Shown: positions 2,127-18,246 of the stretch, in pieces
Numbering within the stretch: position 1 is the first letter of the stretch
How the letters are laid out: each line of letters begins with the position of its first letter
DNA from: Gemmata obscuriglobus
GTDB taxonomy: Bacteria > Planctomycetota > Planctomycetia > Gemmatales > Gemmataceae
DNA length: 32,000 nt
Direction: 5' to 3'
NCBI RefSeq assembly: GCF_008065095.1
Contig: NZ_CP042911.1
Location: 1,440,001-1,472,000 of the forward strand
Position numbers and translations under genes: made by a program
Notes under the pieces: model-generated
What the model was told of the DNA's origin: nothing
The model's input: only the letters and a program-made list of their open reading frames with translations
The model's database searches: none

Positions 2127-2188
2127 CCGCCCCTCGGACCGGCACGGCCGCACCCGCACACCGCCCCCCAACATAACGAGGCCCGAAC

Positions 2189-2902
2189 GTGAACATCGTC
2201 CGCATGCCGCAAGCCCTGCGCGAAGCCAAAGACCTGCACGGGGTCTACGACGACTTCCCGTGGTACATCAGCCCGCACCTGTGGACCGCCACCCTCACCG
2301 ACTCCGGCACCGTCGTGGCCGCCGGCGTCGGCGGGATCGCCACCCTCACCAGCTCCGACGGGAGCGTGGCCGACAACGACGAATCGTACCTCGCTACCAC
2401 CATCGCCCTGTTCAAGCCCGCCGCCAACAAGCCGCTATACGCCGAAGCCCTGATCCAGTTCACCGAGGCCGCAACCGACGACGCCAACGTGGCGTTCGGG
2501 CTCGCGTCGTCGGTGGGGGCGAACCTGATCCTGGACGACGGCGCCGGGCTCCGCGCCAGCGGGACGGTCGTTGCCATCTACAAGGTGGACGGCGACACGG
2601 CGTGGCGGTTCGTCACCCGCAACGGCTCGGACGTGACCGTGAGCCAGAGCCAGGAGAGCGCCGGCGGGGCCGGCTACCAGCAGCTCGGGATCGAGGTCCT
2701 CGACGCCTTCGGCAGCTACGCCACCTGCGTCCCCACCGTGGACGGCCGGCTCATGCGCGACGCCGTCACCGGCCAGCCGATCCGGCACCAGCTCCTGCTC
2801 ACCGGCCTCGCCCCCGCGAGCCTGTTCGTGGGCGCCAAGAACGGCGGCGCCAACCTCGAAACCACCAACGTCGATTACGCCGGCTGCTGGCAGGCGCGCT
2901 GA
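2189..2902 (+). CDS. phage head-module protein (possible decoration/cement or auxiliary capsid protein)
   Basis: 237-aa ORF with a GTG start preceded by ACGAGG. It lies between the protease/scaffold gene and the major capsid gene. The sequence is Gly/Ala/Thr-rich and looks beta-rich. The family was not recognised with certainty. Confidence 0.45.
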   Translation: MNIVRMPQALREAKDLHGVYDDFPWYISPHLWTATLTDSGTVVAAGVGGIATLTSSDGSVADNDESYLATTIALFKPAANKPLYAEALIQFTEAATDDANVAFGLASSVGANLILDDGAGLRASGTVVAIYKVDGDTAWRFVTRNGSDVTVSQSQESAGGAGYQQLGIEVLDAFGSYATCVPTVDGRLMRDAVTGQPIRHQLLLTGLAPASLFVGAKNGGANLETTNVDYAGCWQAR

Positions 2903-3139
2903 GGAAATGCGGAGTGCGGAATTCGGAATGCGGAATTGAAGACAACAAGAACAATATCGCCCAGGCACCTGTTCGATGTTCCGCATTGCGGCTGTTCCGC
3001 ACCGAATTGCGTCCCGCTTGCTCGTTGTCTTGTATTTTGTTTGTTTGTTTGTTGGTTGGTTGGTTCTATTCCGAATTCCGAATTCCGCGTTCCGAATTGG
3101 GAACGTTCCGCATTCCGAACTCCACATTCCGAATTACCT
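2903..3139. repeat. AT-richer inverted arrays of heptamer repeats (AATNCGG)n ... (CCGNATT)n forming a long imperfect hairpin
   Basis: The left arm is aatgcgg agtgcgg aattcgg aatgcgg aattg. The centre has a tgtttgtttgtttgttggttggttgg tract. The right arm is attccga attccga attccgc gttccga ... gcattcc gaactcc acattcc gaatt. ORFs 2435..3127(-), 2799..3002(-), 2875..3405(-) and the first 68 codons of 2936..4345 translate it (NSEFRIPNSEF / SECGIRNAE-type strings). Confidence 0.85.
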
Positions 3140-4345
3140 ATGAACACTGCCAAACTGGTCGAATCGTACAAGCGGCACCCGGCGGAGACGGAGGCCGGGC
3201 TGCGGGCCTCGCTCCGCGGGGGCGCGATCCGCACCGAAGACCTGGACCTCGGCGACCTGTTCGTCGAGTGCTTCGGGTGGAACAACTTCAACCACTGCCG
3301 CAAGAACCTGGGCGACTGCGCCGAGCGCGCGCACGGGGTGCTCCAGCGCGCCCGGGTGGAGGAGGCCGCCGGGGCCAACAGCACCGCGGCGTTCCTCAAC
3401 ATCACCCAGCAGTTCGCCTACGAGCGGGTGCTGGCCGCCTACGACGTGCCCGCCCGCGTCTTCGTGAACGCCATCCCGACCCGGCCCAGCAAGTTCAAGT
3501 TCGAGCGCATCGCGGGCGTCACCCACGTCGGGGACGAGAGCGACGTGGTGGAGGAGGGGAAGCCGTACCCGGAGGTGGGCGTCGGCGAGGACTGGACCGA
3601 CACCCCGGAGACCCGCAAGCGCGGGATGATCGCGCGAGCGACGAAGGAGGCGGTGTTCTTCGACCAGACCGGCGAGTTCATGACCAAGCTCGACTCCCTG
3701 GGCGAGTGGCAGGGGGTGAGCGACGAGAAGCGGGCCATCACCTGCGTGGTGGACGCCGGCGAAACCCCCAAGAACCAGTACCGGTACCGGTGGCGCAACC
3801 TGGGGCCGATCCCCACCTACGGGGACAACAGCGGCGCGCACACCTGGGACAACCTGGTGACGGCCAACGCGTTGGTCGATTACACGGACGTGCAGGCCGC
3901 GTGGCAGGCCCTCGTCGAGATCCTGGACCCGGCCACGGGCGAGCCGCAGAACGTCACGGTCAAGCACATCTGCGTGCCGCCGGCGCTGGCGTTCACCGTG
4001 CCGTTCGCGCTCAAGGGGATGGTGCGCCGCACCGCCCCGGGGTACGCGACCTCGGGGAACCCGGTGGGCAGCGAGATCCCGAACCCGACCGGCGACATCA
4101 TCGGGCAGATCCAGGTGATGAGCAGCCAGTTGTTCCGGGCCGTGTCCGGGTCCGACACCACGTGGTTCCTGGGCGACCTGGGCGGCGCCTTCGAGCAGAT
4201 CGAGAACTGGCCGCTGACGGTCACCACGATGGGCGCCGGCAGCCAACTGGAGTTCGATCAGGACATCATCTTCCAGAGCAAAGTGTCCAAGCGCAGCACG
4301 TTCAACACGGTCCAGCCGCGCCGCATGTGCAAATGCACCGCGTGA
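3140..4345 (+). CDS. phage major capsid protein (HK97-fold type)
   Basis: In-frame ATG at 3140 in ORF 2936..4345, about 401 aa. The size, the position after protease/scaffold, and sequence character (AAFLNITQQFAYERVL..., KFKFERIAGVTHVGDESDVVEEGKPYPEVG..., ...ATKEAVFFDQTGEF...) are typical of Mu-gpT/HK97-like capsid proteins. Confidence 0.65.
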   Translation: MNTAKLVESYKRHPAETEAGLRASLRGGAIRTEDLDLGDLFVECFGWNNFNHCRKNLGDCAERAHGVLQRARVEEAAGANSTAAFLNITQQFAYERVLAAYDVPARVFVNAIPTRPSKFKFERIAGVTHVGDESDVVEEGKPYPEVGVGEDWTDTPETRKRGMIARATKEAVFFDQTGEFMTKLDSLGEWQGVSDEKRAITCVVDAGETPKNQYRYRWRNLGPIPTYGDNSGAHTWDNLVTANALVDYTDVQAAWQALVEILDPATGEPQNVTVKHICVPPALAFTVPFALKGMVRRTAPGYATSGNPVGSEIPNPTGDIIGQIQVMSSQLFRAVSGSDTTWFLGDLGGAFEQIENWPLTVTTMGAGSQLEFDQDIIFQSKVSKRSTFNTVQPRRMCKCTA

Positions 4346-4385
4346 GGTGCGGGCACCGGGAAAACAGACACCACGGGAACCGATT

Positions 4386-4676
4386 ATGGCCGACGAGACC
4401 AAGAAGGCGGGCGCGCGGGCGGGGCACGCGAAGGGCGAACCGCCCGCCCCGAAGCCCGGCGCGCGGGTGTGCGATCCGACCGAGCGGGCGGGGGAGGGGC
4501 TCAAGCGGTTCAAGCTGCGTCTGGAAGGGCACCCCTTCGGGGCACGCACCCAGCGGTACGTGCTCGCCCCGGACCGCGACAGCGCCGTGGGCGAGTACCT
4601 GCGGGCGGAGGGCATCGACCCGGGCGACGTGGACGGCGCGGGCGTCCGGGTGGTGGCGACCGAGCTGCCGGACTGA
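4386..4676 (+). CDS. small phage head-module protein, unknown function
   Basis: In-frame ATG at 4386 of ORF 4347..4676 (MADETKKAGARAGH...). It follows the capsid gene on the same strand. Confidence 0.45.
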   Translation: MADETKKAGARAGHAKGEPPAPKPGARVCDPTERAGEGLKRFKLRLEGHPFGARTQRYVLAPDRDSAVGEYLRAEGIDPGDVDGAGVRVVATELPD

Positions 4677-4781
4677 GGTGGGGGTGGAACTGGGTGCTCG
4701 CGGGGCCGGGCGATCGGTCGCCCCGCGAACACACGCGCCGTCAGCGGTTTCTCACTCACACGAGTTGGTACGAGGTCGCCC

Positions 4782-5009
4782 ATGCCGACGCCCCTTCAGA
4801 ACTTGCAGGCCGCGTACCGCGACGTGTGCGCGAAGATCGCCGAGGTGCTGGCGAACCCGCTGCCGGACTACACGCTCCCCGGGGGCGTGCGGGTGGACCG
4901 CAAGACCTACTACGAGAGCCTGCTGGACCAGGAGAAGAGCCTGCGGGCCATCCCCGGGGCCGCCCCGGACACCAACCCCGTGTTCACCCAGACCAGCATC
5001 GTGAGGTAG
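4782..5009 (+). CDS. small phage connector-region protein, unknown function
   Basis: 75-aa ORF (MPTPLQNLQAAYRDVCAKIAEVLANP...). It sits in the head-tail connector position and its stop is 2 nt before the next start. Confidence 0.5.
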   Translation: MPTPLQNLQAAYRDVCAKIAEVLANPLPDYTLPGGVRVDRKTYYESLLDQEKSLRAIPGAAPDTNPVFTQTSIVR

Positions 5010-5011
5010 CC

Positions 5012-5359
5012 GTGGCCGACGAACTGGACGGCATCGACTTCGGCGCCGACTTTGAGGCGCTCGCGCAGGGAACCGCCCCGGTCGCGGTGGCGAGCGTCGA
5101 TGCCATCAGCGGGGTAGCGGCGGTCACTGTAACGGGGGTTACAGCCGCGAAGCTGATCCGCAAGGGCTCCACCGGGCCGGCCCGGTCGGGCGAGGTCCAC
5201 ACCACGCAGAACGAGTTCTGGCTCCGCACGGACCGGCTCGGGTTCGTGCTGAAGCCGGTGGACCGGATCACCGAAGGCGACGGCACGGTGTGGGTGGTTG
5301 CCGAGGTGAACGAGGTGGCGGGCCGCATCGTGCGGTGCCCGGTCACGAGGAAGAGGTGA
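5012..5359 (+). CDS. possible head-tail adaptor / head-closure protein
   Basis: GTG at 5012 in the frame of ORF 4469..5359 (MADELDGIDFGADFEAL...DRITEGDGTVWVVAEVNEVAGRIV). The size (115 aa) and position fit. The call rests on synteny and weak pattern resemblance. Confidence 0.35.
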   Translation: MADELDGIDFGADFEALAQGTAPVAVASVDAISGVAAVTVTGVTAAKLIRKGSTGPARSGEVHTTQNEFWLRTDRLGFVLKPVDRITEGDGTVWVVAEVNEVAGRIVRCPVTRKR

Positions 5360-5363
5360 GCCC

Positions 5364-5825
5364 GTGCCGAACCCGGTGAGCCCGAACCTGATCGCCGACG
5401 CCGTGGTGGCCGCCGTCCGGGCGCTGAACCTCGTGCCCGGCAACAAGGTGCAGAAGCTCAAGACCCCGAGCCTGCCGAGCGGGGTGGACCCGCCGTTCAT
5501 CGCCGTGTGCGTGGGCGAGGGCGGCGAAGAGGGGCAGACGACGATTCTCACGTACCGGCACAAGATCAACCGCTACCCGACCACCGTCGTCATCATCGGA
5601 GCGGGCGACGGGCGCGTGCTGGCGGACGGCGAGCGGGTGCGGGAGTGGCGCACGCTCATCGAGCAGGCCGTGGGCGACTCCCGGGGGTGTTTCGCGACCG
5701 TCCCCGGGTGGCTGTTCACGGCGACGATCGGGAAGGCCCCGTTCGACGGCAGCCTGATCCCGCGCGACCTCGATTACTCGGCACAAACGTTCAACGTGGC
5801 GGTCGTGGAACCCCGGAGCACCTGA
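5364..5825 (+). CDS. phage neck / tail-completion region protein
   Basis: 153-aa ORF with a GTG start preceded by AAGAGG. It is tightly coupled to its neighbours. The call is by synteny only. Confidence 0.4.
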   Translation: MPNPVSPNLIADAVVAAVRALNLVPGNKVQKLKTPSLPSGVDPPFIAVCVGEGGEEGQTTILTYRHKINRYPTTVVIIGAGDGRVLADGERVREWRTLIEQAVGDSRGCFATVPGWLFTATIGKAPFDGSLIPRDLDYSAQTFNVAVVEPRST

Positions 5826-5826
5826 G

Positions 5827-6207
5827 ATGCCGTTTACGCATTCGATTAGCCTGACCTGGGGCGCGGGTGGCGACCTGATCGGCACCGCCGTGAGCAAGAC
5901 CGGCGGGATCGAGCAGAACTTTTCGCTCGGGCTCGGGACCGTGACCCACCAGTTGATCGACCTCGAATGGGCCGCGGCCAAGCTGCTCGCGATCTTCATC
6001 GTGGTCGACGCGGACTGCACGCTGAAGCTGAACAGCAGCGGCAGCCCGACGGACACCATCGCCCTCAAGCCCGGCGCCCCGTTCTGCTGGGTGCGGGACA
6101 GCGGGGTGGCGTACCCGTTCGTCGGGACCGCGGGCGCCGTGACCGCGGGGTACGTGACCACCGCGGCCGCAACGGGGATCGAGATCCGCACCCTGCTGGA
6201 CCTGTGA
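5827..6207 (+). CDS. phage structural protein, unknown function
   Basis: 126-aa ORF whose start abuts the previous stop (TGAGATG). Confidence 0.45.
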   Translation: MPFTHSISLTWGAGGDLIGTAVSKTGGIEQNFSLGLGTVTHQLIDLEWAAAKLLAIFIVVDADCTLKLNSSGSPTDTIALKPGAPFCWVRDSGVAYPFVGTAGAVTAGYVTTAAATGIEIRTLLDL

Positions 6208-6209
6208 CC

Positions 6210-6713
6210 ATGCCGCTCGACGCCGTCAGCCTCAGTGCCGCCTGCCGCTTCTCGTTCGCCCGGCCGGTGGCCGGCTGGGCGGCCCTGGAGCAGGGGACCA
6301 ACCAGGTCGCGTTCGGCGGCGCCCTCGACCCGGCCGCGTGGGACCAGGCGTACGCCGGCGTCCTCACCGTCGCGGGGGGCGGCGCCGCAACGATCGATCT
6401 GACGAACTTCACCGACCTGACCGGTCAGACCGGTGTCGCGCTCGCCGCGGTGCTGGGGCTGATCGCGCGGGCCGAGCCGGCCGACCCGGACAACAGCGAC
6501 ATCGCCGTCCGCGTCGGGCCGGGGGACGCGAACGGGTTCCAGTGGCTCGCCGGGGCCGGGGCGGTCGCGCTCGGCGCGGGCGAGTCGGTCGTAAAGATGG
6601 GCGCCCCGGCCGGCGGCGGCGGGGCCGTCGGCGGTACGCACAGGACGCTGAAGGTCGCCAACGCCGGGGCCGACGCCGCGACGGTGACCATCGTCATCAT
6701 CGGCCACACGTGA
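6210..6713 (+). CDS. phage structural protein, unknown function
   Basis: In-frame ATG at 6210 within ORF 5967..6713 (MPLDAVSLSAACRFSF...TVTIVIIGHT), 2 nt after the previous stop. Confidence 0.45.
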   Translation: MPLDAVSLSAACRFSFARPVAGWAALEQGTNQVAFGGALDPAAWDQAYAGVLTVAGGGAATIDLTNFTDLTGQTGVALAAVLGLIARAEPADPDNSDIAVRVGPGDANGFQWLAGAGAVALGAGESVVKMGAPAGGGGAVGGTHRTLKVANAGADAATVTIVIIGHT

Positions 6714-6720
6714 GGGGCCC

Positions 6721-7098
6721 ATGCCGGACAACTTTATCAGCGGCAACAACAGTTACGTGAAGCTCGGCGCGGTCGCGTTCAGCTTCAACAAGTGGCGCCT
6801 GCCGCTCGACGGGGGCGTGAAGAAGTTCTTCGCCTTCGGGCACAACTTCCAGCGCACGCTGCCCGGCGGGGTCGCGGGCGCGCCGGTGTGCGAGGGGCCG
6901 TACAACGCGGGCAACATGCCGCTCGCGCTCGGCGCCCTGGTGGTGCTGCACCTGGGGTTCGCGGCGGGCGTGGAGCTCGCCGTCAACGCCCGGGTGTCCA
7001 CCATCGAGTACAGCAGCGAGATCAGCGCCGGGGGGGACCCGGCCCAGTGCTCCGTCGGGTTCGAGACCGACGGCGAGTTCACCATCAACTTCACCTGA
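6721..7098 (+). CDS. probable tail tube protein
   Basis: 125-aa ORF immediately upstream of the chaperone pair and the tape measure, which is the canonical siphovirus order. The sequence is beta-rich (NSYVKLGAVAFSFNKW...EFTINFT). Confidence 0.5.
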   Translation: MPDNFISGNNSYVKLGAVAFSFNKWRLPLDGGVKKFFAFGHNFQRTLPGGVAGAPVCEGPYNAGNMPLALGALVVLHLGFAAGVELAVNARVSTIEYSSEISAGGDPAQCSVGFETDGEFTINFT

Positions 7099-7109
7099 CC
7101 GGAGCCGGT

Positions 7110-7577
7110 ATGAGCGAACGCGCGGCAGCCTTCGGCGCGCTGAACCCGCCGAAGGTGATCGAACACCGGGGCAAGACGTACCGCGTCGCGCCCGTCATGA
7201 CCGAGGGCACGCTGCTCCGGGTGGAGGAGCGGCTGTACGAGCGCGCCCGGGCGGCGCTGAAGGGCGCCCGCGAGCTGTACGCGGACGCGGAGTACGCGGC
7301 CGAGGTGGCGAAGCTGCGGGCGCGGCACGAGGCCGGCGAGTTCGCGTTCTCCAGCGAGAAGACGCTGGCGCACCTGGGCACCACCGAGGGCGCCGCGCTG
7401 CTGCTCTCGTGCATGATGGACGCCGACCTGGGGGAGGTGCTCCAGCTCCTCACCGAGCGCGAGGCGGACGTGCGCGAGCTGCTCGACGAGGCGGTGGAGC
7501 TGAGCTTCCCAAAAGGATCGCCCCCGCGGCCGGCGCCGGAGCCGCGGGGCGACCGGCCGCGCCCGAAGCGCCGGTGA
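7110..7577 (+). CDS. tail assembly chaperone (gpG-like)
   Basis: ATG at 7110 in the frame of ORF 6792..7577. It lies between the tube and tape measure genes. It contains a slippery heptamer near its 3-prime end, and the -1 frame is open from 7409 to 7876. Confidence 0.65.
   Translation: MSERAAAFGALNPPKVIEHRGKTYRVAPVMTEGTLLRVEERLYERARAALKGARELYADAEYAAEVAKLRARHEAGEFAFSSEKTLAHLGTTEGAALLLSCMMDADLGEVLQLLTEREADVRELLDEAVELSFPKGSPPRPAPEPRGDRPRPKRR
7508..7514 (+). promoter_or_regulatory. candidate -1 programmed ribosomal frameshift site C CCA AAA
   Basis: The zero-frame codons are ttC CCA AAA, an X XXY YYZ heptamer. It lies 61 nt upstream of the gpG-like stop. The -1 frame continues ...PKRIAPAAGAGAAGRPAAPEAPVRTPG... 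through to 7876. Confidence 0.55.
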
Positions 7578-7876
7578 GGACGCCGGGGGCGCTGACCGCC
7601 CGGTACGCCGTCCTCGTGAACGTCCACCGGCTGCGGATGCACGAGGTGCTAGACCTGACCCCGCGCCAGGTCCACGAGTTGTACTTCCACCCGCGGGACC
7701 GGGACGGGGCGATCCAACTCCCGGAAGGGGCCGGGGACGAGCCGGCCGACCGGACGGCGCGACTGGCCCAACTGATCGCGCTCGGGCCGGCGCTGGGCGT
7801 GCCGCCGGAGCAGATCGAGGAACTGAAGCGCCGACTGGGGGCCGTAACCGATGGCGACACCGGACCAACAGCTTGA
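7574..7876 (+). CDS. gpT-like ORF in the -1 frame, probably expressed as a G-T fusion (7110..7514 joined to 7514..7876)
   Basis: The frame is -1 relative to 7110..7577. A GTG at 7574 overlaps the upstream stop (GTGA). The ORF ends inside the start of the tape measure gene. Confidence 0.5.
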   Translation: MRTPGALTARYAVLVNVHRLRMHEVLDLTPRQVHELYFHPRDRDGAIQLPEGAGDEPADRTARLAQLIALGPALGVPPEQIEELKRRLGAVTDGDTGPTA

Positions 7877-9095
7877 GGCCCTCACCCGGCTCACCGCGCA
7901 ACAGCTCGGCACCCTGAAGCTGATTCAGGGCGCCGTCGGTCAGATCAACGGGCAACTGAAGGGGCTGAAGGCGCCGGGACCCAAGCTCCCCAGCGCGGGG
8001 GGCGGGGGCGCTGGCGGTGGTAAGGGTAAAGGAACGAACCCGCTCGAGATGATCGGCGGGTTCGTCGGCAAGTTCGGCAAGGTGCTGGGCGTCGCCGGCG
8101 CGGTCGTCAGCGGCGTGGTCGCCGCGCTCACCGCGATCCCGATGGCGATCGTCGGCGTCGTTCAGGCGTCGGCGTCGTACGTCGGCGCCCTCAACCCGTC
8201 CGCCGTCGAGCAGTACGATCGGGCGCAGAACGACCTGCGCGCGACCATCGGGTACGGGCTGCAGCCGATCATCGCGTACGCGACCAAATCGCTCAAAGAC
8301 TGGGCCGGCATCCTGCTCCCGTCGATCCAGCAACTGCGCCCGGTGGTGGAACGCATCTCGGCGGCCGTGAGCGGGTACCTGATCGGCCCGGTCCGCCTGG
8401 TGGGGAAGCTCATCGACGGCTTCGCCAAGGGGCTCGAGGGCGTGCTGCCGGTGATCGAGAGCCTGGTCTCGACGGCCGCGGCGTTCGGCGAGGTCCAGCA
8501 GGCCATTACGGACGTGCTGGCGGCGTCCGGCCTCGGGCAGCTCTTGGGCGTGAAGAACGATCTGAACCGGGAGCTGCTCAAGTTCACCGCCGAGGCGTTC
8601 CGGAAGCTCGTCACCGCCCTCGTAATCGCGACCGCGCGGCTGCTACAACTGGCGGGTGCCACCGAGTCGCTGAAGCGGTTCAAGGACTCGCTGCAGGGCG
8701 CAGTTGACGCCCGAAAGGCGCCCAAAAGCGGCCTCACCGCGGCGCCGTCCGACGCCGGCACGGGTTCGATCGAGGACGTGCTGAAGCGGCTGAACGAGCG
8801 GGCGTTTGTCGCGACCTCGGGCGCCACCACCAAACAGACGGACACCGAGTACCTGGAAGACCTTGTGAAGGTGGTGGGGCAGATCCAGGCGAACCCGTTG
8901 AACTGGAAGCAGATGATAACCGACGCGGTCCGCGACGCCCTGCCGCCCGGGCCGGCGGCGCTGCTGGATTTCGTCGGAATGGGTGACGCCAGCAGCGGCG
9001 GGAGCCGACGCGGGGGCGGGGCGGCCGGCGCGGCCGGGTTGCTGACCCGGTTCGCGGCCGGCGGACTGCGCGGCGCGATGTTTGGGGGGAGCTGA
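7851..9095 (+). CDS. tail tape measure protein (short, 414 aa)
   Basis: It lies after the G/GT pair. It has a Gly-rich tract, a hydrophobic segment (VLGVAGAVVSGVVAALTAIPMAIVGVV) and long helical Ala/Leu-rich stretches typical of tape measure proteins. Confidence 0.7.
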   Translation: MATPDQQLEALTRLTAQQLGTLKLIQGAVGQINGQLKGLKAPGPKLPSAGGGGAGGGKGKGTNPLEMIGGFVGKFGKVLGVAGAVVSGVVAALTAIPMAIVGVVQASASYVGALNPSAVEQYDRAQNDLRATIGYGLQPIIAYATKSLKDWAGILLPSIQQLRPVVERISAAVSGYLIGPVRLVGKLIDGFAKGLEGVLPVIESLVSTAAAFGEVQQAITDVLAASGLGQLLGVKNDLNRELLKFTAEAFRKLVTALVIATARLLQLAGATESLKRFKDSLQGAVDARKAPKSGLTAAPSDAGTGSIEDVLKRLNERAFVATSGATTKQTDTEYLEDLVKVVGQIQANPLNWKQMITDAVRDALPPGPAALLDFVGMGDASSGGSRRGGGAAGAAGLLTRFAAGGLRGAMFGGS

Positions 9096-9096
9096 G

Positions 9097-10242
9097 ATGG
9101 CACTGATGATGGAGCTGACCGGCGACAGCGAGCGTATGTCCACCGCAATTTCGCAGGAAGATGGGTCCGCCGAGGCGACGTACCGCATCATCGGTGACAC
9201 GCAGGACCAGCCCCCGGACGCGGACACGCTGCGCACCGTGGTTGACGGCTTCCTGGGCGGCGTGCTGAACCTGAAGGCGCGTGTCGTCGGCCAACAGTAC
9301 GCGGAGGCGGGCAAGATCAACCGCGTGCTCCCTGTCGTTCACCCGTTCCGGCCGGAACTGTCCGCCTCCGCGATCACGATTTCCGGCATCGGCAAGAGCC
9401 AGGCGGCCGACTCGAAGCCCACCGGGCTGTCGGCGGTGACGGTGCAGTACCCCCACTGGACCGCGTACGACCTGAAGGTCCGCTTCCAGAAGCGGCCGTA
9501 CCCGCTGGTGAAGAACGAGAACATCGCGGTCAAGAGCGACCTGACGTACTACCCACCCGACGGCAGCGCGGGCAAAACGGTCACCTACGCGGAGGAGTGG
9601 CGGCGGTTCACGACGCTCACGCGCACGCCGACCGGCGAAACGGTGTCCGCGAGCCTGGGTTCGATGATGTTCAAAACGCAGACCGGAACCGTTGCACCAC
9701 ACAACCGCAACTACACCGGGCAGGTCTACGCGTACCTTCCGAACGAGATGATTGAGCTGAACTGGTTCATGGTTCCGTTCCGGTACTTCCAGCAGTACGG
9801 CGATTCAAAGCCCTATTTGACGCGGTTCCAGAACACCATCAACCAGTACCCGTTCCTGGGGTTCGGTGCCGGCTCCTTGCTGTTCCTGGGGGCGACGCCG
9901 ACGAGCTACATCCCGGTGACGCCCGATGCGAAGCTGTACACGCAGGGGCTGGAAACCGGTGCCGACGCCGGGCTGCTGTGCAACGTGAAGCTGCGGTTCC
10001 TGTACACCTCGCGGGAGGGCACAGACGTGCCCGACTCGTCGAACCCGCTGTTGACGGCGAACCGGAACCGCGTTGCGGCGGGGCACAACCTGCTCATCAA
10101 CTACAGCGATCGACGGTACTACTACACCGTCACGGAGCCCACACCCGGCTCGGATGCGGGCCGGCACCCGAGCTTCGATTCGTTCCCGTTCCAGCTACTG
10201 TTCACCGACCCTCTGTACCAACAACCGGGCGGGGCGATTTGA
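9097..10242 (+). CDS. tail-tip protein, candidate receptor-binding protein
   Basis: ATG at 9097, 1 nt after the tape measure stop, 381 aa. It is the only tail gene downstream of the tape measure. Its last roughly 170 codons are duplicated at 10890-11400. Confidence 0.45.
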   Translation: MALMMELTGDSERMSTAISQEDGSAEATYRIIGDTQDQPPDADTLRTVVDGFLGGVLNLKARVVGQQYAEAGKINRVLPVVHPFRPELSASAITISGIGKSQAADSKPTGLSAVTVQYPHWTAYDLKVRFQKRPYPLVKNENIAVKSDLTYYPPDGSAGKTVTYAEEWRRFTTLTRTPTGETVSASLGSMMFKTQTGTVAPHNRNYTGQVYAYLPNEMIELNWFMVPFRYFQQYGDSKPYLTRFQNTINQYPFLGFGAGSLLFLGATPTSYIPVTPDAKLYTQGLETGADAGLLCNVKLRFLYTSREGTDVPDSSNPLLTANRNRVAAGHNLLINYSDRRYYYTVTEPTPGSDAGRHPSFDSFPFQLLFTDPLYQQPGGAI

Positions 10243-13292: not shown

Positions 13293-13306
13293 GGGGGATC
13301 GGGGGC

Positions 13307-13577: not shown

Positions 13578-13612
13578 GTGGATAATCCGCCACGTTGGTG
13601 CGCCGGTCGGCA

Positions 13613-14011: not shown

Positions 14012-14103
14012 GTCGGCTCCCGTGGGAAGGACGCTCGGCGTGAGGCGTCCGCGGCGGGCCAGCTTAAGCGACCCGCCGGGGTGGGGCAACGGGCAACCGG
14101 GGC

Positions 14104-14120
14104 CGCTGCCATCGGCCGGG
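14104..14120 (+). promoter_or_regulatory. copy 2 of shared motif CGCTGCCATCGGCCGGG, ending 2 nt before the ATG at 14123
   Basis: Exact 17-mer identical to 960-976 and 27825-27841. Confidence 0.5.
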
Positions 14121-14122
14121 GC

Positions 14123-15739
14123 ATGGCCGAACCGCTGCTGATCCGCGCCGTCATCACCGCCAAGGACGACTCGTCTGGCCGTTGGCGCTACGGCTGGAAG
14201 GAGCAGGGCACCGACCTGGGAACCGGCGGCGACCTGGACCCGCTCGGCTACCGCCGCGGCACGACGAGCGTCAACCCCGCGGTCGAGCTGAACGACCGCG
14301 AGGTGGCGCCCGGCACCGTGGTCTGGTTGCGCGAGCGGGGGTTCGTCGCCGGCCAGATGTGGTACGAGTTCGCGGTCACCGCCGGCGCCACTTCCTCCAC
14401 GACAACGACCACGACCACCACCGCCGGCCCGTGCGCCGGCGCGTGCCAGTGGACCTACTCCGCCGCCTCGAAGGCCTGGACCCGCACCACCTCCACCTGC
14501 GCCGCCGGCTGTCACTGCCTCGCCCCGACGTGGTGCCCCGCCGCCGACGCCTGCGCCACCACCGCGTGCGGGCGCCTCGCCGCGGACGCGCCGGCGCCGA
14601 GCTGCACCGGCGCCACGACCACCCCGGGCGCGTGCGGGACCACGACCCCGGGCGCGTGCGCCGCCGGGTGCGTGTGGTACTGCCACCCGGTGCGCGGCTG
14701 GGTGCAGCGGTCGAACGGGTGCTCGGGCGCCTGCCCGTGCCCGCGCCCGGCCGGCCCCTGCACCGTGTCCGAGTGCGCGACCGAGGCGACGACCCCGTGC
14801 CAGGTGCCGCCCTACTACTGCACCGGCTCGTGCCGGTGGATGTGGGTGAGCGCGGAACTCGGCTGGGAGTGGGTCACCGGCAGTTGCTCGTCCTACGGGG
14901 TGTCGGGCTGCGCGTGCGACCGCCCGGCCGCGCCCGGCTCGCGGTGCGGCCAGGAGGTGAGCACCCCGTGCTACTCCCCACAGGGCAACAACCCGTGCCA
15001 GACGGTGACCACCGCCGGCCCGCCGACCGCGTGCGGCGGGGACTGCCTCTGGGGGAGCACGGACGGCGCGAGCTGGAACCAGATCGTGCGGCCGTGCGTG
15101 GGCGCCGGGTGCGTGTGCGACCGCCCGCTGTACGCCCCGGCCGGCACCTGCTCGCAGGCCGCCGGCGCGTGCGTGCAGGGCGTGCCGACCACGACCACCG
15201 CCGCGCCGCCCACCACCACCACCGCCGGCCCGCTCCAGTGGTGGTGCTACGACTGCACGGAGAACCCGAGCTACGGGTTCTGGGGGTGCGCCGCGACGCC
15301 CACGATGCCCGCCGGGTGCGTGCAGAAGTCCGGCCCGTACCTCGGCGACAGCGCGGCGTGCGTGGCCGCGTGCCAGCCGCCGACCACCACCACCGCCGGC
15401 CCCACGACCACCCCGGCCCCCGCGACGACCAGCACAACGACCACCACCGCCGGCCCGCCGCCGGTCACCACCACCGCGCCGACCACGACGCCCGCGCCGA
15501 CCACCACCACGGCCGGCCCGGTGGTGGACTACTTCTGCTGCCAGTGCCCGCTGGGGGTCAACACGTGCTCCTTCGATCCGATTAACCAGTGCGCGGGCTG
15601 CACGGTCACGGGGCCGATGTCCCTGGCGTTGTGCAACGGCACGTGCGTGGGCGGGATCGGGGGCACGACCACCACACCGCCGCCGGCGCCCGTGACCACC
15701 GGGACCGGCACCGGTGGCCCGACGGCCAGTCCGGACTGA
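14123..15739 (+). CDS. Cys-rich modular protein with Thr-rich TTTAGP linkers and an N-terminal phage-like domain; no signal peptide
   Basis: ATG at 14123 in ORF 13595..15739; the upstream part overlaps DUF1304 antisense. There are four modules of the form C-x3-C-x-W-x(7,8)-W-x6-C-x(3,7)-C-x-C-x(1,2)-P, plus two more Cys-rich modules. They are separated by T(n)AGP linkers. Confidence 0.7.
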   Translation: MAEPLLIRAVITAKDDSSGRWRYGWKEQGTDLGTGGDLDPLGYRRGTTSVNPAVELNDREVAPGTVVWLRERGFVAGQMWYEFAVTAGATSSTTTTTTTTAGPCAGACQWTYSAASKAWTRTTSTCAAGCHCLAPTWCPAADACATTACGRLAADAPAPSCTGATTTPGACGTTTPGACAAGCVWYCHPVRGWVQRSNGCSGACPCPRPAGPCTVSECATEATTPCQVPPYYCTGSCRWMWVSAELGWEWVTGSCSSYGVSGCACDRPAAPGSRCGQEVSTPCYSPQGNNPCQTVTTAGPPTACGGDCLWGSTDGASWNQIVRPCVGAGCVCDRPLYAPAGTCSQAAGACVQGVPTTTTAAPPTTTTAGPLQWWCYDCTENPSYGFWGCAATPTMPAGCVQKSGPYLGDSAACVAACQPPTTTTAGPTTTPAPATTSTTTTTAGPPPVTTTAPTTTPAPTTTTAGPVVDYFCCQCPLGVNTCSFDPINQCAGCTVTGPMSLALCNGTCVGGIGGTTTTPPPAPVTTGTGTGGPTASPD

Positions 15740-15768
15740 TTCGACCACAGCTTCACGAGAGGATCGGG

Positions 15769-18246
15769 ATGAGCAGCCCGCTGACGATCGGCATGGCGAC
15801 CCGGGGCGAGCCGGACCACGTGTGGTTCGTGCTCTCGGCCCTGGCCGCGAACCACCCGCGGGTCGAGTACCTGGTGGTGGACAATACCCCGGAGCGGGAC
15901 CCGCGGGTGGAGGCGATCACCCGGGCCGTGGGCGGCCGGTACCTGCACCGCCCGGACCTCACCGGTACGTCCAAGCCCCGGGACGCCGTGTTCCGGTTCG
16001 CTCGCACCCCGTGGGCCCTGTGCATCGACAGCCACGTGATTCTGGAAACGGGTGCGGTGCAGGCGGCCCTCTACTTCGCCTCACGTTATCCGGACTCGCG
16101 GGACATCGTGTCCGGGCCGCTGGTGCACGACGACGGCCGCGGGCTGGCGACCCACTGGCGACCGAACCCGGGCGGCGGGCTGTGGGGCACCTGGGACACG
16201 GACCCGCGCGGCGCGGCCCCCGCCGGCGAGCCGTTCGAGATCCCCATGATGGGCCTCGGGCTGTGGCTCATGCGCACCGCGGCGTGGCCCGGGTTCCACC
16301 CGCTGTTCAACGGGTTCGGGGGCGAAGAAGGGTACGTTCACGAGGTGGTGCGGCGCCGCGGGGGCCGGGCGCTGTGCGTGCCCGGGCTGCGGTGGCGGCA
16401 CAAGTTCCGCGACGTGTCCGGCTGGCACAACAACCCGCCGCCCCCGTACCCGCTCCGCACCGAGGACCACGTGTGGAACCTGCTGATCGGTCACCGGGAA
16501 CTCGGAATCGACGCGGTCCCGCAGATCCGCGAGCACTTCGGGAAGGGGCTGCCCGCGGACACCTGGGGGCGGCTGGTGGAGCGGTCCGAGGCGGTGCAGC
16601 CGGTCGGCGGCCCGCGTCCGGGGCCGAAGCGCCAGCGCATCCTGGCGGTCTGGTACACGGACAACAGCGCCCCCGCCGCGCTGCTCCAGCGGAGCGCCGA
16701 GACCGTGACCCACGCCCGCGACCAGACCTTACGGCACGACGTGACCGTGAGCGCGTGCGGGTGGGAACCGGTCGCCGGGGTGCGGGTCGGGGACCACTGG
16801 ACCACGTTCGCCGGTGAAAAGCGCCGCGCGCACGCCACCATCGCCGCGCAGATCCGGGCCGCCGCGGCAGCGGCGATCGCGGACGGCTCGCAGTTCGACG
16901 CCGTCGCGTTCTGCGAGCACGACGTGCTGTACCCGCCCGGGTACTTCGACCGGCTCGGCGACGCCCTCGCCGCGCACCCGTCGGCCCCGGTGGTATCGCA
17001 CCTCGATTACATCGGCCTCAACGGCACCGGCTGGCAGCCGGTGCGCGAGCGACACGAGCCGCTGCACCAGCTGGCCCTGCGGTGGGACACCTTCCTCACG
17101 AACCTGACCCGCGCCGAAACGGAAGCGGCCGGCGGTGGTCCGGTGGTCCTCGAACCGGACCACGGGGCCGACCGGTCCGCCTGGGCGCGGCTGGACCCCG
17201 CCGACCCCGCGGGCATGAGCGGCACGCCGGCCGTTCACGTGAACCACACCGCCGGCCGGTTCACGGCGCACGGGGACGTGTGCTACGAGCCGCGCGGCGC
17301 GTCCCTGTGGCACCCGCACTGGGGCGAGGCGCGTCACTGGTGGCCCGGCCCGATGACGACGGTGTCGAGCGTGGACGTGACGCAGTTCAAACCGCAGAAG
17401 CCGGCCGGGTGCTCGGCGTGCGAGGCGAACGCGCACCCGACGCCCGCCGCGTGGGCCGAGGCGTCGGCCGCGAAGCCGTCCGACTTCCACGAGCACGTCG
17501 GCACGCTGCGCGCGCTGGCGGCCGGCTGCGCGAGCGCCGCGGAGCTGTCGCTGTGGATGAAGCCGGCGGACGCGGCGCTCGTCGCCGGCCTCCCGGCCGA
17601 CGGCACGTTCGTGAGCGTGTGCCCCCGGCCGAAGCCGCAGTGGGAGCGGTTGAGGGGTTGGCTGGGCGCGCGGTTCGAGGGCCGCACCGCCGACCCGGCG
17701 GCCGCGGACCTGCCCCCGGTGGACCTGCTGTTCATCGACACCGATCACACCGCCGACGCGCTCATGCCCCTGCTGGAGCGGCACCACGAGCGGGTGGCGA
17801 AGTACATCGTGGTTCACTGCACCGAGACGTTTGGGGAGAGCGGCGACCGGCCCGACGCCCCGGGCGTGCTGCACGCGCTGCGAACCTTCTGCCACCGCCA
17901 CCCGGGCTGGGTGGTGAAGCGCCGCGATCGGAACAACCACGGGCTGATGGTTCTGTCGCGGTGCGCCGAGGACGTGAGGGCGAAGCCGGCGCTGTGGCGC
18001 CAGGCGATGAACTACACGGCGGCGATGGCGCGGCACGTGGCGGGCGGGCGCCGGACGGTGCCGCTGGAGGTGCTCGAATCGCGCCAAGCGGAGTGCGCGC
18101 TGTGCGAGGAGCGGGCGCTGGACGCGTGCGCCGCGTGCGGGTGCCCGCTGGAGGCCAAGCTGCCCCTCGCAACCGAATCGTGCGGGCTGGTGAAGAAGGG
18201 GCAGGCGCCGAAGTGGGGGCCGTGGCCGGACGCCCCGACCGGGTGA
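15769..18246 (+). CDS. multidomain enzyme: GT2-like glycosyltransferase, second glycosyltransferase-like domain, class I SAM-methyltransferase-like domain, and C-terminal Cys4-type zinc ribbon
   Basis: ATG at 15769 in ORF 15589..18246. The N-terminus (LTIGMATRGEP...YLVVDNTPERD...ALCIDSHV) looks like GT2. The middle (RILAVWYTDNS...FCEHDVLYPPGYF) looks like a nucleotide-sugar transferase. The segment VDLLFIDTDHTADA...YIVVHCTETF resembles Methyltransf_24-type enzymes. The end reads CALCEERALDACAACGCPLEAKL...SC. Confidence 0.65.
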   Translation: MSSPLTIGMATRGEPDHVWFVLSALAANHPRVEYLVVDNTPERDPRVEAITRAVGGRYLHRPDLTGTSKPRDAVFRFARTPWALCIDSHVILETGAVQAALYFASRYPDSRDIVSGPLVHDDGRGLATHWRPNPGGGLWGTWDTDPRGAAPAGEPFEIPMMGLGLWLMRTAAWPGFHPLFNGFGGEEGYVHEVVRRRGGRALCVPGLRWRHKFRDVSGWHNNPPPPYPLRTEDHVWNLLIGHRELGIDAVPQIREHFGKGLPADTWGRLVERSEAVQPVGGPRPGPKRQRILAVWYTDNSAPAALLQRSAETVTHARDQTLRHDVTVSACGWEPVAGVRVGDHWTTFAGEKRRAHATIAAQIRAAAAAAIADGSQFDAVAFCEHDVLYPPGYFDRLGDALAAHPSAPVVSHLDYIGLNGTGWQPVRERHEPLHQLALRWDTFLTNLTRAETEAAGGGPVVLEPDHGADRSAWARLDPADPAGMSGTPAVHVNHTAGRFTAHGDVCYEPRGASLWHPHWGEARHWWPGPMTTVSSVDVTQFKPQKPAGCSACEANAHPTPAAWAEASAAKPSDFHEHVGTLRALAAGCASAAELSLWMKPADAALVAGLPADGTFVSVCPRPKPQWERLRGWLGARFEGRTADPAAADLPPVDLLFIDTDHTADALMPLLERHHERVAKYIVVHCTETFGESGDRPDAPGVLHALRTFCHRHPGWVVKRRDRNNHGLMVLSRCAEDVRAKPALWRQAMNYTAAMARHVAGGRRTVPLEVLESRQAECALCEERALDACAACGCPLEAKLPLATESCGLVKKGQAPKWGPWPDAPTG

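Follow-up and report, generated by a model that had tools for sequence, protein, structure and literature searches.

We infer that two adjacent genes of Gemmata obscuriglobus, here named A and B, constitute a phage cassette in which A encodes a fibre on the virion surface, most probably one of the tail. Judging from sequence motifs and gene neighbourhood, the soluble enzyme encoded by B is predicted, with fair probability, to O-glycosylate the Thr linkers of A in the cytoplasm before virion assembly. The arrangement points to phages that sugar-coat their own fibres.

Genomic context of the A/B cassette

The window, that is, the whole stretch of 32,000 nucleotides that was analysed, corresponds to positions 1,440,001 to 1,472,000 of the forward strand of contig NZ_CP042911.1 (assembly GCF_008065095.1). 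It contains a phage-derived structural cluster with a capsid, a tape measure and a spike base of the RcGTA type (Table 1). Between the tail genes and A lie a tandem duplication and genes for a lipoprotein and a DUF1304 protein, and the phage-derived element may be defective. The spike base gene is kept 3' of B in Gemmata algarum.

Homologues of A are placed at the end of phage tail modules, which fits the fibre-like character proposed for A in a first-pass annotation. The A/B cassettes are preceded by Phage_tube_2/minor tail, tape measure and capsid genes and followed by DCD and DNA methylase genes. In contigs resembling complete lytic-type phages, B is found inside the structural module, between fibre and DNA-metabolism genes. 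The adjacency of A and B alone could be positional, as fibre and accessory genes are often located at the end of tail modules.

Table 1. Features of the A/B locus, in window coordinates
Feature	Position	Strand	Basis
Upstream phage-derived structural cluster	978..10242	+	Phage_capsid_4, phrog_1533, synteny with locus L166
Capsid	3140-4342	+	Phage_capsid_4, E 1e-10
Tape-measure-like gene	7851-9095	+	phrog_1533, tape measure
Tail gene	9097-10242	+	Counterpart directly 5' of A in Gemmata sp. G18
Gene A (GobsT_12330), 538 aa, Cys/Trp modules and poly-Thr linkers, putative virion fibre	14123..15739	+	ORF, GC3 frame, 100% identity to GobsT_12330, homologues at tail-module end
A N-terminal domain, aa 1-85, putative tail adaptor	14123..14377	+	Alignment of N-terminal types; AF2 confidence low, about 50
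First poly-Thr linker of A, VTAGATSSTTTTTTTT, candidate O-glycosylation tract	14375..14422	+	Thr columns conserved in homologues
A core, four Cys/Trp modules (aa 101-163, 176-228, 230-290, 301-352) with short Thr-rich spacers	14423..15178	+	Motif matches, invariant Cys/Trp, pLDDT 70-90
C-terminal part of A: Thr linkers (aa 353-376, 421-465, 513-538) and Cys modules (aa 377-420, 466-512)	15179..15736	+	
Shine-Dalgarno-like GAGAGGA, 5 nt before the B ATG	15757..15763	+	Sequence reading, inside the A-B spacer
Gene B, 825 aa, GT-A + GT-A + methyltransferase-like fold + Cys ribbon	15769-18246	+	
B domain 1, GT-A glycosyltransferase, GT27/GT60-like, DxH (D87, H89) and C-terminal His (H211)	15769..16614	+	PF00535, alignments, Foldseek
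B domain 2, second GT-A-like, invariant E383-H384-D385	16630..17358	+	AF2 Rossmann-like topology; two-domain alignment to K4CP
B domain 3, class-I methyltransferase-like fold, Methyltransf_24/CmcI type, degenerate SAM motifs	17431..17988	+	Seven-strand topology (AF2)
B C-terminal Cys cluster, zinc-ribbon-like (C776, C779, C787, C790, C792, C805)	18001..18243	+	Invariant Cys in homologues
Spike base protein, RCAP_Rcc01079 family, 80 aa	18291..18533	+	NF048002, E 8e-23; phrog_12296 'tail fiber', E 4e-19

Modular organization of A

The open reading frame of A has a GC3 of 0.97 and is, therefore, considered the coding frame. The protein is rich in Thr (17.1%), Cys (8.9%, 48 residues) and Trp (3.3%), and includes 12 runs of at least three Thr. 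Neither a signal peptide, in line with the first-pass annotation, nor a transmembrane segment was detected, the highest 19-residue Kyte-Doolittle mean being 1.05. The strict pattern C-x3-C-x-W-x(7,8)-W-x6-C-x(3,7)-C-x-C-x(1,2)-P matches A exactly four times (aa 104-135, 179-209, 233-268 and 304-335), as many copies of the module as had been claimed, and one of 20,000 residue shuffles of A gave even a single match. The Cys and Trp residues of these modules are invariant or almost so among 16 aligned homologues, and 28 Cys residues of the protein are conserved. AF2 models the core as beta-hairpin modules. Two further Cys modules follow, as described previously; the C-terminal one is predicted with a pLDDT of about 90, and the C-terminal part of A differs among homologues.

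A search of Pfam, PHROGs, NCBIfam, PDB sequences and PDB folds returned no match to the four-module core, which agrees with the initial failure to place the module in a known family. Of 1.84 billion cluster representatives, only 80 contain the core, and most matches cover the whole block. Poly-Thr-AGP linkers had been assigned to every junction between modules. They occur at some; modules 2 and 3 are separated by a single residue, and modules 3 and 4 by 'PCQTVTTAGP'. A resemblance of the N-terminal domain to phage tail or fibre accessory domains found no backing, as no family match was obtained in the libraries searched. Alignment reveals that A homologues differ in the type of this domain, which tracks the kind of upstream tail gene.

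Domain architecture of B

B starts 29 nt downstream of A, as first annotated (A stop codon 15737-15739; B ATG 15769), and has no detectable transmembrane segment or signal peptide. Because both proteins lack these elements, they can meet in the cytoplasm. B had been described as a fusion of two glycosyltransferases, a methyltransferase and a Cys4 ribbon that belonged to no recognizable family. Two GT-A domains, a methyltransferase-like fold and a Cys cluster were indeed recovered; the methyltransferase-like domain is devoid of the canonical SAM motifs, and domain 1 does belong to a known family, namely Pfam GT2 with motifs of the GT27/GT60 type.

The Pfam model Glycos_transf_2 (PF00535) spans residues 7-165 of B with 45 bits against a cut-off of 23.3. 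The residues D87, H89 and H211 are invariant across 37 homologues. D87-S-H89 aligns to the DSH of GalNAc-T10; in GalNAc-T7, the stretch 'GGEEGY...VP..RWRH211' aligns to the Gal/GalNAc-T motif together with the His that binds the metal. At the sequence level, domain 1 is only marginally similar to ppGalNAc-Ts (16-18% identity, E 0.004-0.05), and the Pfam GT60 model does not match B. DxH replaces DxD only in GT27 and GT60, both of which O-glycosylate Ser/Thr of polypeptides and cluster with the GT2-chondroitin synthase (PMC7185993). As read from these alignments, domain 1 carries in its DxH and C-terminal His the signature of the GT27/GT60 clade of polypeptide O-glycosyltransferases.

Among the 50 PDB matches listed by Foldseek, chains of the K4CP chondroitin polymerase rank first and span both glycosyltransferase domains of B, followed mostly by polypeptide GalNAc-transferases (E about 1e-12 to 1e-9); heparosan synthase is matched as well. 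TarP, a prophage-encoded wall-teichoic-acid GlcNAc-transferase, was among the profile-search matches.

Domain 2 has no PDB sequence match, and PF00535 is weakly matched in 5 of 13 homologues. On closer alignment the catalytic residues were found in place, D87-x-H89 and H211 in domain 1 and the invariant E383-H384-D385 in domain 2. In domain 3, the match of B itself to Methyltransf_24 is weak; PF13578 is matched in nine of the 13 homologues and RMNT_CmcI in two, and the stretch 'LLFIDTDHT' is conserved. Two features canonical for SAM binding are absent, namely the Gly-rich motif I and an acidic residue following strand beta2. The domain is, on this basis, probably inactive, and the loss weakens the earlier idea of methylated sugars. 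The Cys cluster matches phrog_13558, an entry of unknown function, with an E value of 5e-5.

Conservation of the gene pair

Eight A-type loci were examined, comprising the window, a second G. obscuriglobus copy, Gemmata sp. G18, SH-PL17 and four metagenome phage contigs. B, or frameshifted remains of it, lies directly 3' of A in all eight, and the co-occurrence anticipated for the two genes is thus observed; in the draft assembly, a frameshift divides the second G. obscuriglobus copy of B. A B match of about full length and size is present at 16 loci, 15 of which (L006-L015, L058 and L086-L089) have a Cys- and Thr-rich ORF upstream of B, and one (L016) has none. This ORF ends within about 100 nt of the B start in 13 of the 15 loci, and the Cys motif is found in all 13 that were checked (the 15 without L058 and L087). 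The A-B order is preserved across divergent phages at 45-90% identity.

Poly-Thr proteins next to homologues of B domain 1

The density of ORFs with at least two runs of four or more Thr was counted at 80 viral and 79 bacterial genome loci of domain-1 homologues. It reaches 10-12 per 100 kb within 3 kb upstream of the glycosyltransferase and is at most 0.5 per 100 kb beyond 6 kb, an enrichment of at least 20-fold that holds for the viral and the bacterial set. The poly-Thr partners have no folded domain in common: some contain a GDSL lipase, Stig1, Calx-beta or InlB B-repeat domain, others hardly any folded part, and some of the bacterial ones are Tat-signal proteins. Their Cys content varies from 0 to 16%, with 0-1.7% at L017, L033, L046, L066 and L075. 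Since partners rich in poly-Thr can be almost free of Cys, Thr and not Cys is the common feature. The enrichment, found in unrelated phages and bacteria, reinforces the tie between B and Thr linkers. By the criterion used, a poly-Thr neighbour is missing at more than half of the domain-1 homologue loci, among them those of a group of long B-like enzymes (L016, L025, L029-31, L040-41, L044-45).

Proposed function and alternative explanations

The initial interpretation is, overall, partly supported. The analysis establishes the sequences, the domain folds, the conservation of the catalytic motifs, the phage setting and the pairing of the genes. We infer the glycosylation itself, the presence of A in the virion and its Thr residues as acceptors, and likewise the nature of the sugar and any influence on the fibre. 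A would be built from an exchangeable N-terminal adaptor, a core of four small beta-rich Cys/Trp modules and variable C-terminal Cys modules, joined in part by poly-Thr linkers (T4-8-[AG]-G-P). B would be a soluble cytoplasmic enzyme from the same operon, whose domain 1, a metal-dependent GT-A of the DxH/C-His type, would transfer the first sugar from a nucleotide sugar to linker Thr hydroxyls, and whose domain 2 would lengthen the glycan. The methyltransferase-like domain and the Cys ribbon may cap the glycan or, more probably given the loss of the SAM motifs, form a scaffold or substrate-binding part. As stiff and extended spacers that resist proteases, the glycosylated linkers would then hold out the Cys/Trp modules.

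Several observations speak against this reading, among them the marginal sequence similarity of domain 1 to ppGalNAc-Ts, the degenerate methyltransferase-like domain and the separation of A from the tail genes in the window. In addition, the best Foldseek match among those listed is a polysaccharide polymerase, the two-domain K4CP, and many domain-1 homologue loci lack a poly-Thr neighbour. The last two points would suit a moron unrelated to A that makes or modifies a surface polysaccharide or the LPS of the lysogenic cell (lysogenic conversion, superinfection receptor masking), as would the Pfam GT2 assignment, the matches to heparosan synthase and TarP, and two Acyl_transf_3 genes 2-4 kb downstream of B in the window. 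Nevertheless, this explanation is unlikely, because B has no membrane segment, resides within the structural module of phage contigs and bears the motifs of a polypeptide-glycosylating clade; a positional moron, moreover, predicts none of the poly-Thr enrichment seen in phages and bacteria, Tat-signal proteins included.

Slightly less likely still, B might modify A off the Thr linkers, for instance by S-glycosylation of Cys, or chiefly help the Cys/Trp modules to fold or assemble, by means of its Cys ribbon and methyltransferase-like domain. Glycocin S-glycosyltransferases are GT2-type enzymes that glycosylate Cys, and assembly chaperones are often encoded beside phage fibre genes. The many conserved Cys residues of A need to fold in a reducing cytoplasm, and the conserved ribbon and probably inactive domain could bind substrate. 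The nearly Cys-free poly-Thr partners at other loci, however, argue against it, and the invariant catalytic motifs of both glycosyltransferase domains oppose its non-catalytic version.

T4 DNA glucosyltransferases are GT-B enzymes, unlike the GT-A DxH fold of B. Together with an enrichment specific to poly-Thr neighbours and the preserved A-B order, this makes it improbable that the poly-Thr tracts are unmodified flexible spacers and that B acts on another phage or host target (capsid, tail tube, DNA), even though the mycobacteriophage targets named in the accounts of PMC11256854 and PMC12363180 are capsid proteins, DNA is the target of T-even phage glycosyltransferases (PMC9614988), and DCD and DNA methylase genes lie just 3' of B in phage L002.

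Comparison with known glycosylation systems

The closest single-domain solved folds to B domain 1, among the 50 Foldseek matches listed, are the GT27 polypeptide GalNAc-transferases and GT60 polypeptide alpha-GlcNAc-transferases. They share with B the GT-A fold, DxH in place of DxD, and a C-terminal metal-binding His within the motif 'GGE..VP...H.(F/Y)R', and the candidate acceptors of B are mucin-like, with Thr clusters followed by Pro. By contrast, B has neither membrane anchor nor ricin lectin domain, is 16-18% identical, and combines domain 1 with three further parts, the second GT-A, the methyltransferase-like domain and the Cys ribbon, in one fusion. It is, furthermore, encoded by phages of Planctomycetes, and any action would take place in the bacterial cytoplasm.

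Densely O-glycosylated Ser/Thr tracts between folded modules are found in serine-rich repeat adhesins (GtfA/GtfB) and in the Pro/Thr linkers of cellulases, and such glycosylated linkers are extended and protease-resistant. Serine-rich repeat proteins are glycosylated in the cytoplasm by dedicated, adjacently encoded glycosyltransferases. Unlike B, GtfA/B are GT-B enzymes of Gram-positive bacteria, with substrates exported via the accessory Sec system, whereas in cellulases membrane enzymes glycosylate the linkers once the protein has been exported, and B is proposed to act in the cytoplasm. Neither system is viral.

A viral counterpart is A064R of PBCV-1, a protein of 638 aa with two rhamnosyltransferase domains and a methyltransferase domain, which, like B, is virus-encoded, soluble and a single polypeptide in GT-GT-MT order; A064R builds a virion-protein glycan (PMC9614988). 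The 638-aa BFVD entry M1IF74, possibly an A064R relative, is among the fold matches of B. The glycan that A064R extends is N-linked and belongs to the major capsid protein of a eukaryotic virus, whereas the candidate acceptor of B is fibre poly-Thr. Domain 1 of A064R has DXD and domain 3 is active as a methyltransferase, in contrast to the DxH and missing SAM motifs of B. The Cys ribbon is an extra of B.

In mycobacteriophages, glycosylation targets include tail tube subunits. Virion proteins with covalent glycans and own glycosyltransferases are described for Che8, Corndog and Myrna (Freeman et al. 2023, as cited in PMC11256854 and PMC12363180), where the targets mentioned are capsid proteins, as opposed to the candidate fibre poly-Thr of A. 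These tailed phages, as with A/B, encode their own enzymes, and the Che8 glycosyltransferase Q855A2 matches the fold of B distantly. Their genes are separate and near the genome end, in contrast to the fibre-adjacent four-domain fusion, and no fibre with poly-Thr and Cys modules is involved. Virus-encoded virion glycosylation is thus already known, and the proposed A/B cassette would add a new form of it.

Architecture of protein A

Protein A, the 538-aa putative virion fibre encoded upstream of enzyme B, is 100% identical to GobsT_12330 of Gemmata obscuriglobus, the source of the window. The window is high-GC; third positions in the reading frame of A are 97% G+C, and the antisense frames sharing these positions are interrupted by stops. 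The first-pass annotation had described a Cys/Trp motif, C-x3-C-x-W-x(7,8)-W-x6-C-x(3,7)-C-x-C-x(1,2)-P, in four copies, all of which were recovered with the strict pattern at residues 104-135, 179-209, 233-268 and 304-335. After shuffling of the same residues, a single motif match arose in only 1 of 20,000 sequences. The two further Cys modules were located at residues 377-420 and 466-512, and A has neither a signal peptide, as had been stated, nor a hydrophobic segment. The protein contains 12 runs of at least three Thr. Poly-Thr-AGP linkers, originally placed between all modules, are present at some junctions but not at all of them.

No part of A matched Pfam, PHROGs, NCBIfam or PDB sequences, known fibre families included. 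An AlphaFold2 model built from 16 homologues reached a moderate mean pLDDT of 61.7, with small beta-hairpin modules predicted confidently (70-90) and an ill-defined N-terminal domain. A Foldseek search of the PDB with this model returned nothing below E 0.46; weak matches of the N-terminal region to OB-fold/S17 proteins were discarded as noise. Across the 16 aligned homologues, Cys and Trp residues of the four modules show little or no substitution. Conservation covers about 28 Cys as well as the Thr linker positions, while N-terminal domains and C-terminal modules vary from one homologue to another. An exhaustive phmmer search with the core (residues 101-352) against 1.84 billion cluster representatives retrieved only 80 proteins at E <=0.001 and 33 at E <=1e-10. 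The majority span the whole block, and the N-terminal region ahead of it usually comprises about 40-650 residues. Because whole-block matches are so few among these representatives, the core is, judged by sequence, a rare conserved unit and not a promiscuous repeat. The Cys/Trp module represents a new small domain.

Genomic setting

The tail module of the metagenomic phage contigs ends with the A homologue, which comes after a Phage_tube_2/minor tail gene, a tape-measure-sized protein and three more tail genes; a dCTP deaminase and a DNA methylase lie beyond it. A occupies the distal end of a tail module, in the order tube, tape measure, more tail genes, A, at the second G. obscuriglobus copy (L001), in Gemmata sp. 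G18 (L166) and in three of the phage contigs (L002, L004, L005). GobsT_37810, the A homologue of the second G. obscuriglobus copy, is located in the same type of module. The most plausible reading of A, from gene position only, is a distal virion fibre. Its N-terminal type tracks the kind of tail genes found upstream, which fits an N-terminal domain acting as a swappable adaptor.

Features of the window and of enzyme B
Feature	Position	Strand	Remark
Tandem DNA repeats	499-648; 694-945		Three 61-nt copies; two 123-nt copies; 98% identity; overlap 5' part of long ORF ending at 2126
Capsid gene	3140-4342		Phage_capsid_4; upstream of A
Tape-measure-like gene	7851-9095		Upstream of A
Tail-module gene	9097-10242		Upstream of A
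Tandem duplication	9727-10785; 10885-11940		~1.16 kb, 94-99% identity
Fragment ORF	10906-11400		Within the duplication
Lipoprotein-like gene	11929-13203		Between tail genes and A
DUF1304 membrane protein gene	13616-14011	-	Between tail genes and A
A	14123-15739	+	538 aa
B	15769-18246	+	825 aa
B domain 1	aa 1-282		Pfam GT2 domain
B domain 2	aa 288-530		GT-A-like topology
B domain 3	aa 555-740		Seven-stranded methyltransferase topology
B C-terminus			Six invariant Cys; matches PHROG of unknown function
Spike base protein gene	18291-18533		80 aa, RcGTA Rcc01079 family; 3' of B
Acyl_transf_3 genes	20047-20994; 21282-22370	-	Opposite strand, just past the phage-like genes
Collagen-like ORF	24813-26210	-	Repeat-rich N-terminal part, then Gly-X-Y repeats

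The tandem duplication in the window copies the 3' part of the tail-module gene, as a fragment ORF, together with the next non-coding stretch, and terminates at the start of the lipoprotein gene. In the syntenic cluster of Gemmata sp. G18, the capsid gene is followed by the homologue of this tail-module gene, which runs directly into A. For this reason, the lipoprotein gene, the DUF1304 gene and the duplication look like later insertions or rearrangements, and the stretch between the tail genes and A (10243-14122) appears to be inserted.

A spike base gene likewise follows B in Gemmata algarum (L086 5445-5684). Given this protein and the cluster of a small capsid and a short tape measure (978-10242), the element could be either a defective prophage or a locus for GTA-like particles. 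The local G+C content dips to 0.52 at 20-21 kb. No tRNA was found in the window, and a promoter/terminator scan around the gene pair was uninformative. The protein encoded at 18544-19857 had seemed SGNH-like by eye; it has no family match and does not resemble the GDSL/poly-Thr proteins found at phage locus L046, and the assignment was dropped.

Pairing of A and B

The A stop codon (15737-15739) and the start of the 825-aa B are separated by the 29 nt first reported, and the spacer contains a ribosome-binding-like GAGAGGA. The proposed co-occurrence held across all eight A-type loci examined, namely the window, the second G. obscuriglobus copy, Gemmata sp. G18, Gemmata sp. SH-PL17 (L167) and, at 45-90% identity, four metagenomic phage contigs (L002, L004, L005, L165): B, or its frameshifted remains, lies directly 3' of A in each, with a small Methyltransf_24 gene between the two in Gemmata sp. 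G18. By tblastn, the B homologue of the second G. obscuriglobus copy (L001 11704-14170) is split by one frameshift in an old draft assembly, and that of L165 (9679-12066) is in several pieces over different frames. Gene callers missed both because of these splits, which could be assembly errors or pseudogenization. Among loci whose B match is of approximately full length and size, 15 of 16 have a Cys- and Thr-rich ORF upstream, which in 13 of the 15 ends within about 100 nt of the B start. Of the 15 ORFs, 13 were examined for the Cys motif, and all of these have it.

Domain 1 of B carries a DxH glycosyltransferase signature

An AlphaFold2 model of B calculated from an alignment of 37 sequences has a mean pLDDT of 89.5 and divides into four parts. 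Domain 1 matches Pfam Glycos_transf_2 (PF00535) with 45.1 bits (gathering threshold 23.3). In a Foldseek search of the PDB, the first match was the chondroitin polymerase K4CP, a protein with two GT-A domains whose alignment extends across both GT domains of B, followed by dozens of polypeptide GalNAc-transferase entries. The GT-A fold of domain 1 aligns to GalNAc-T2, T1, T3, T7, T10 and T12 across some 310 columns, with E between 1e-12 and 1e-9. In this fold alignment the identity is 16-18%, and the domain 1 profile searched against the PDB gave E values of 0.0041 (T7), 0.047 (T10) and 0.63 (T2). D87-S-H89 of B is aligned with the DSH of GalNAc-T10, in which DxH replaces DxD. The Gal/GalNAc-T motif is recognizable as well, FGGEEGY...VPGLRWRH211KFR in B corresponding to WGGENFE...VPCSRVGHIYR in GalNAc-T7, with H211 at the position of the metal-binding His. 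D87, H89 and H211 are invariant in the 37 homologues, so that domain 1 retains the catalytic residues expected of the glycosyltransferase originally proposed.

B does not match the GT60 family model (Pfam GlcNAc, PF11397); no families other than PF00535 and PF13578 came up in a Pfam scan run with E values up to 1. B has no hydrophobic segment that could serve as a type II membrane anchor (maximum KD 1.24), and Pfam finds no ricin-type lectin domain, the C-terminal part consisting of the GT-A, the methyltransferase-like domain and the Cys ribbon. Because the GT60 match, the anchor and the lectin domain are all absent, B is filed in neither GT27 nor GT60; its catalytic signature is common to both, and with GT60 it has the DxH motif in common. 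Among GT-A enzymes, the replacement of DxD by DxH is confined to GT27 and GT60, which both glycosylate Ser/Thr of polypeptides (O-linked) and cluster with GT7 and GT2-chondroitin synthase; GT60 is restricted to prokaryotes and protists (PMC7185993). On the strength of its genomic association with poly-Thr proteins, B is a candidate for the transfer of GalNAc from UDP-GalNAc to Ser/Thr of a polypeptide.

The remaining domains of B

Domain 2 has an invariant E383-H384-D385, and its support from sequence is weak, with faint PF00535 matches in 5 of 13 homologues. Profiles of domains 2 and 3 gave nothing useful against PDB sequences. In the model of domain 3, the secondary-structure elements of residues 589-730 follow the order of a Rossmann-like fold that has seven strands and a terminal beta-hairpin. 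This domain also contains the LLFIDTDHT motif found in Methyltransf_24/CmcI proteins, and a BFVD fold match of B is a Pithovirus 'cephalosporin hydroxylase'. Methyltransf_24 is matched by 9 of 13 homologues (E down to 5e-5), and the window sequence scores 17.7-19.1 bits, below the cut-off of 26.3. The hhalign alignment of this domain with a neighbouring Methyltransf_24 protein is limited to the DLLFIDTDHT stretch.

The SAM-methyltransferase role proposed for domain 3, with methylated sugars as a possible product, looks weak. The Gly-rich motif I (E-x-G-x-x-x-G-x-S) is absent from all 13 homologues, ten of which read ELSxW and three of which are variable, and the acidic residue after strand beta2 is missing in nearly all 13, the window reading VSVCPRPKP. 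A separate canonical Methyltransf_24 gene adjoins B in two loci (L166 9716-10282 and L004 9741-10868). By contrast with B, these stand-alone genes retain both SAM features (EVGCFAGVS/VDPW and EIGSFCGRS/VDPF, respectively), so methylation by B itself appears doubtful; the comparison suggests that any methylation comes from the separate gene.

Poly-Thr proteins beside relatives of domain 1

Relatives of domain 1 at 35-49% identity were found in 404 viral contigs and 361 bacterial genome loci; by tblastn, no isolated phage among 50,697 genomes carries the domain. In a census of 80 viral and 79 genome loci, ORFs with at least two runs of at least four Thr occurred in the 3 kb immediately upstream of the GT start at densities of 11.8 (viral) and 10.5 (genome) per 100 kb, against 0-0.4 and 0.4-0.5 per 100 kb, respectively, at more than 6 kb. 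Such a neighbour is present within 5 kb upstream in 32 of 80 viral loci, and anywhere in the locus, mostly just upstream, in 34 of 79 genome loci. The census contigs range from 35% to 74% G+C, and poly-Thr ORFs of 1000-1600 aa occur also at 35-38% GC, so base composition does not explain the association. This upstream pattern is expected if the GT domain acts on poly-Thr, and unexpected for a polysaccharide enzyme that merely lies near fibre genes. A poly-Thr neighbour is absent from over half of the domain 1 loci, among them those of a set of long B-like enzymes, and the acceptors of the family are probably of more than one kind.

Thr tracts are the sole feature common to the partners, whose folded parts are a GDSL lipase, Stig1-like Cys repeats, Calx-beta or InlB B-repeats, or which are nearly pure Thr/Pro. 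Phage partners with such domains are encoded at L017 8247-10004, L046 8712-9998, L018 4480-8211, L075 8442-9968 and L066 8274-9710. Some of the phage partners reach 1000-1600 aa and as many as 60 Thr runs, which makes them mucin-like; they lie on contigs of 35-40% GC. Many bacterial partners begin with a Tat-like SRRxxLK signal (SRRxxLKxxxG) and have the domain 1 homologue just downstream (L122 6454-9819, L104 6762-7991, L099 2411-3169, L115 9296-9883, L133 1500-2594, L100 8508-8900 and L098 2174-2593). Their hosts are Chloroflexota/Thermomicrobiales, Ktedonobacteria, Alphaproteobacteria and Planctomycetota MAGs. Several of these partner proteins have an extremely high Cys content, reaching 15.8%. 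The Tat-like signals hint that cytoplasmic O-glycosylation precedes Tat export in these bacteria.

Proposed role and alternatives

That the two proteins are encoded together is observed, and every step beyond this we infer. A and B would be co-produced in the cytoplasm late in infection or induction. Domain 1 would place a first sugar on Thr of the T(n)-[AG]-G-P linkers; ppGalNAc-Ts also favour Thr with Pro at +3. A second sugar would be added by domain 2, and the methyltransferase-like domain and Cys ribbon might cap the glycan or, more likely, bind the substrate or scaffold the enzyme. Once glycosylated, the linkers would adopt an extended form resistant to proteases, like the glycosylated linkers of cellulases and mucins, and would support the Cys/Trp modules in an outward position. 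The aromatic residues conserved in these modules suggest that they may bind a ligand or glycan, and the Cys may either form disulfides after release or bind metal.

A role of B in surface polysaccharide synthesis or lysogenic conversion draws on its similarities to K4CP and TarP and on the acyltransferase genes nearby; we consider it unlikely, given the poly-Thr enrichment, the solubility of B and its placement inside structural modules. Less probable again is that B modifies the Cys of A or acts as its chaperone, since poly-Thr partners free of Cys argue against Cys as the acceptor and the catalytic motifs are invariant. Least probable is that B acts on the capsid or on DNA, an option with no specific support.

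More broadly, domain 1 could be seen as representing a large branch of the DxH polypeptide O-glycosyltransferases, so far undescribed, that occurs in prokaryotes and phages and forms a sister group of the eukaryotic GT27/GT60. Members of this branch would glycosylate poly-Thr tracts in the cytoplasm in the mucin-type manner. We regard this as possible rather than probable. The suggested substrates would be phage fibres before virion assembly and Cys-rich poly-Thr proteins exported folded via Tat in Chloroflexota, Alphaproteobacteria and others. If true, it would reveal a new general route of bacterial protein glycosylation and a candidate prokaryotic or viral root of mucin-type O-glycosylation.

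Comparison with known systems

To our knowledge, phage-encoded virion glycosylation has been demonstrated only recently, for mycobacteriophage capsids, and we know of almost nothing on the biology of Planctomycetes phages. In Gram-positive bacteria, Ser-rich adhesins are glycosylated in the cytoplasm by adjacent GTs. Our literature search on phage poly-Thr fibre glycosylation, Gemmata prophages and GT27/GT60 in phages found no prior description. New in B is the enzyme type, a GT-A with DxH and C-terminal His fused to a second GT-A, a degenerate methyltransferase fold and a Cys ribbon. The candidate acceptor (poly-Thr fibre linkers), the Cys/Trp module, the host group Planctomycetes and the broad genomic link of this GT domain with poly-Thr proteins are also new.

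The cassette suggests a different form of virion glycosylation, conserved in Planctomycetes phages, in which a mucin-like, densely Thr-glycosylated fibre is made by a GT27/GT60-like enzyme. Drawn from sequence, the biochemical claim for A and B would be a precise and easily testable prediction, and the association across hundreds of viral and bacterial contigs makes enzyme and substrate directly testable with a nucleotide sugar and a poly-Thr peptide. Confirmation would make available a soluble enzyme of bacterial type for the synthesis of mucin-like glycopeptides and give a handle on the stiffness, protease resistance and immune or receptor shielding of phage fibres.

Virus-encoded glycosylation of virion proteins is established for the mycobacteriophages Che8, Corndog and Myrna (PMC11256854, PMC12363180) and for chloroviruses, in which A064R is a GT-GT-MT fusion (PMC9614988). 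B has the same order of GT, GT and methyltransferase in one soluble viral polypeptide as A064R (PMC9614988), and its Foldseek matches include the unnamed 638-aa BFVD entry M1IF74 (E 2e-10, with a low TM of 0.16-0.20). With GT27, B shares the GT-A fold, the DxH and the Gal/GalNAc-T motif with its C-terminal His; by contrast, the membrane anchor and the lectin domain belong to GT27 and not to B.
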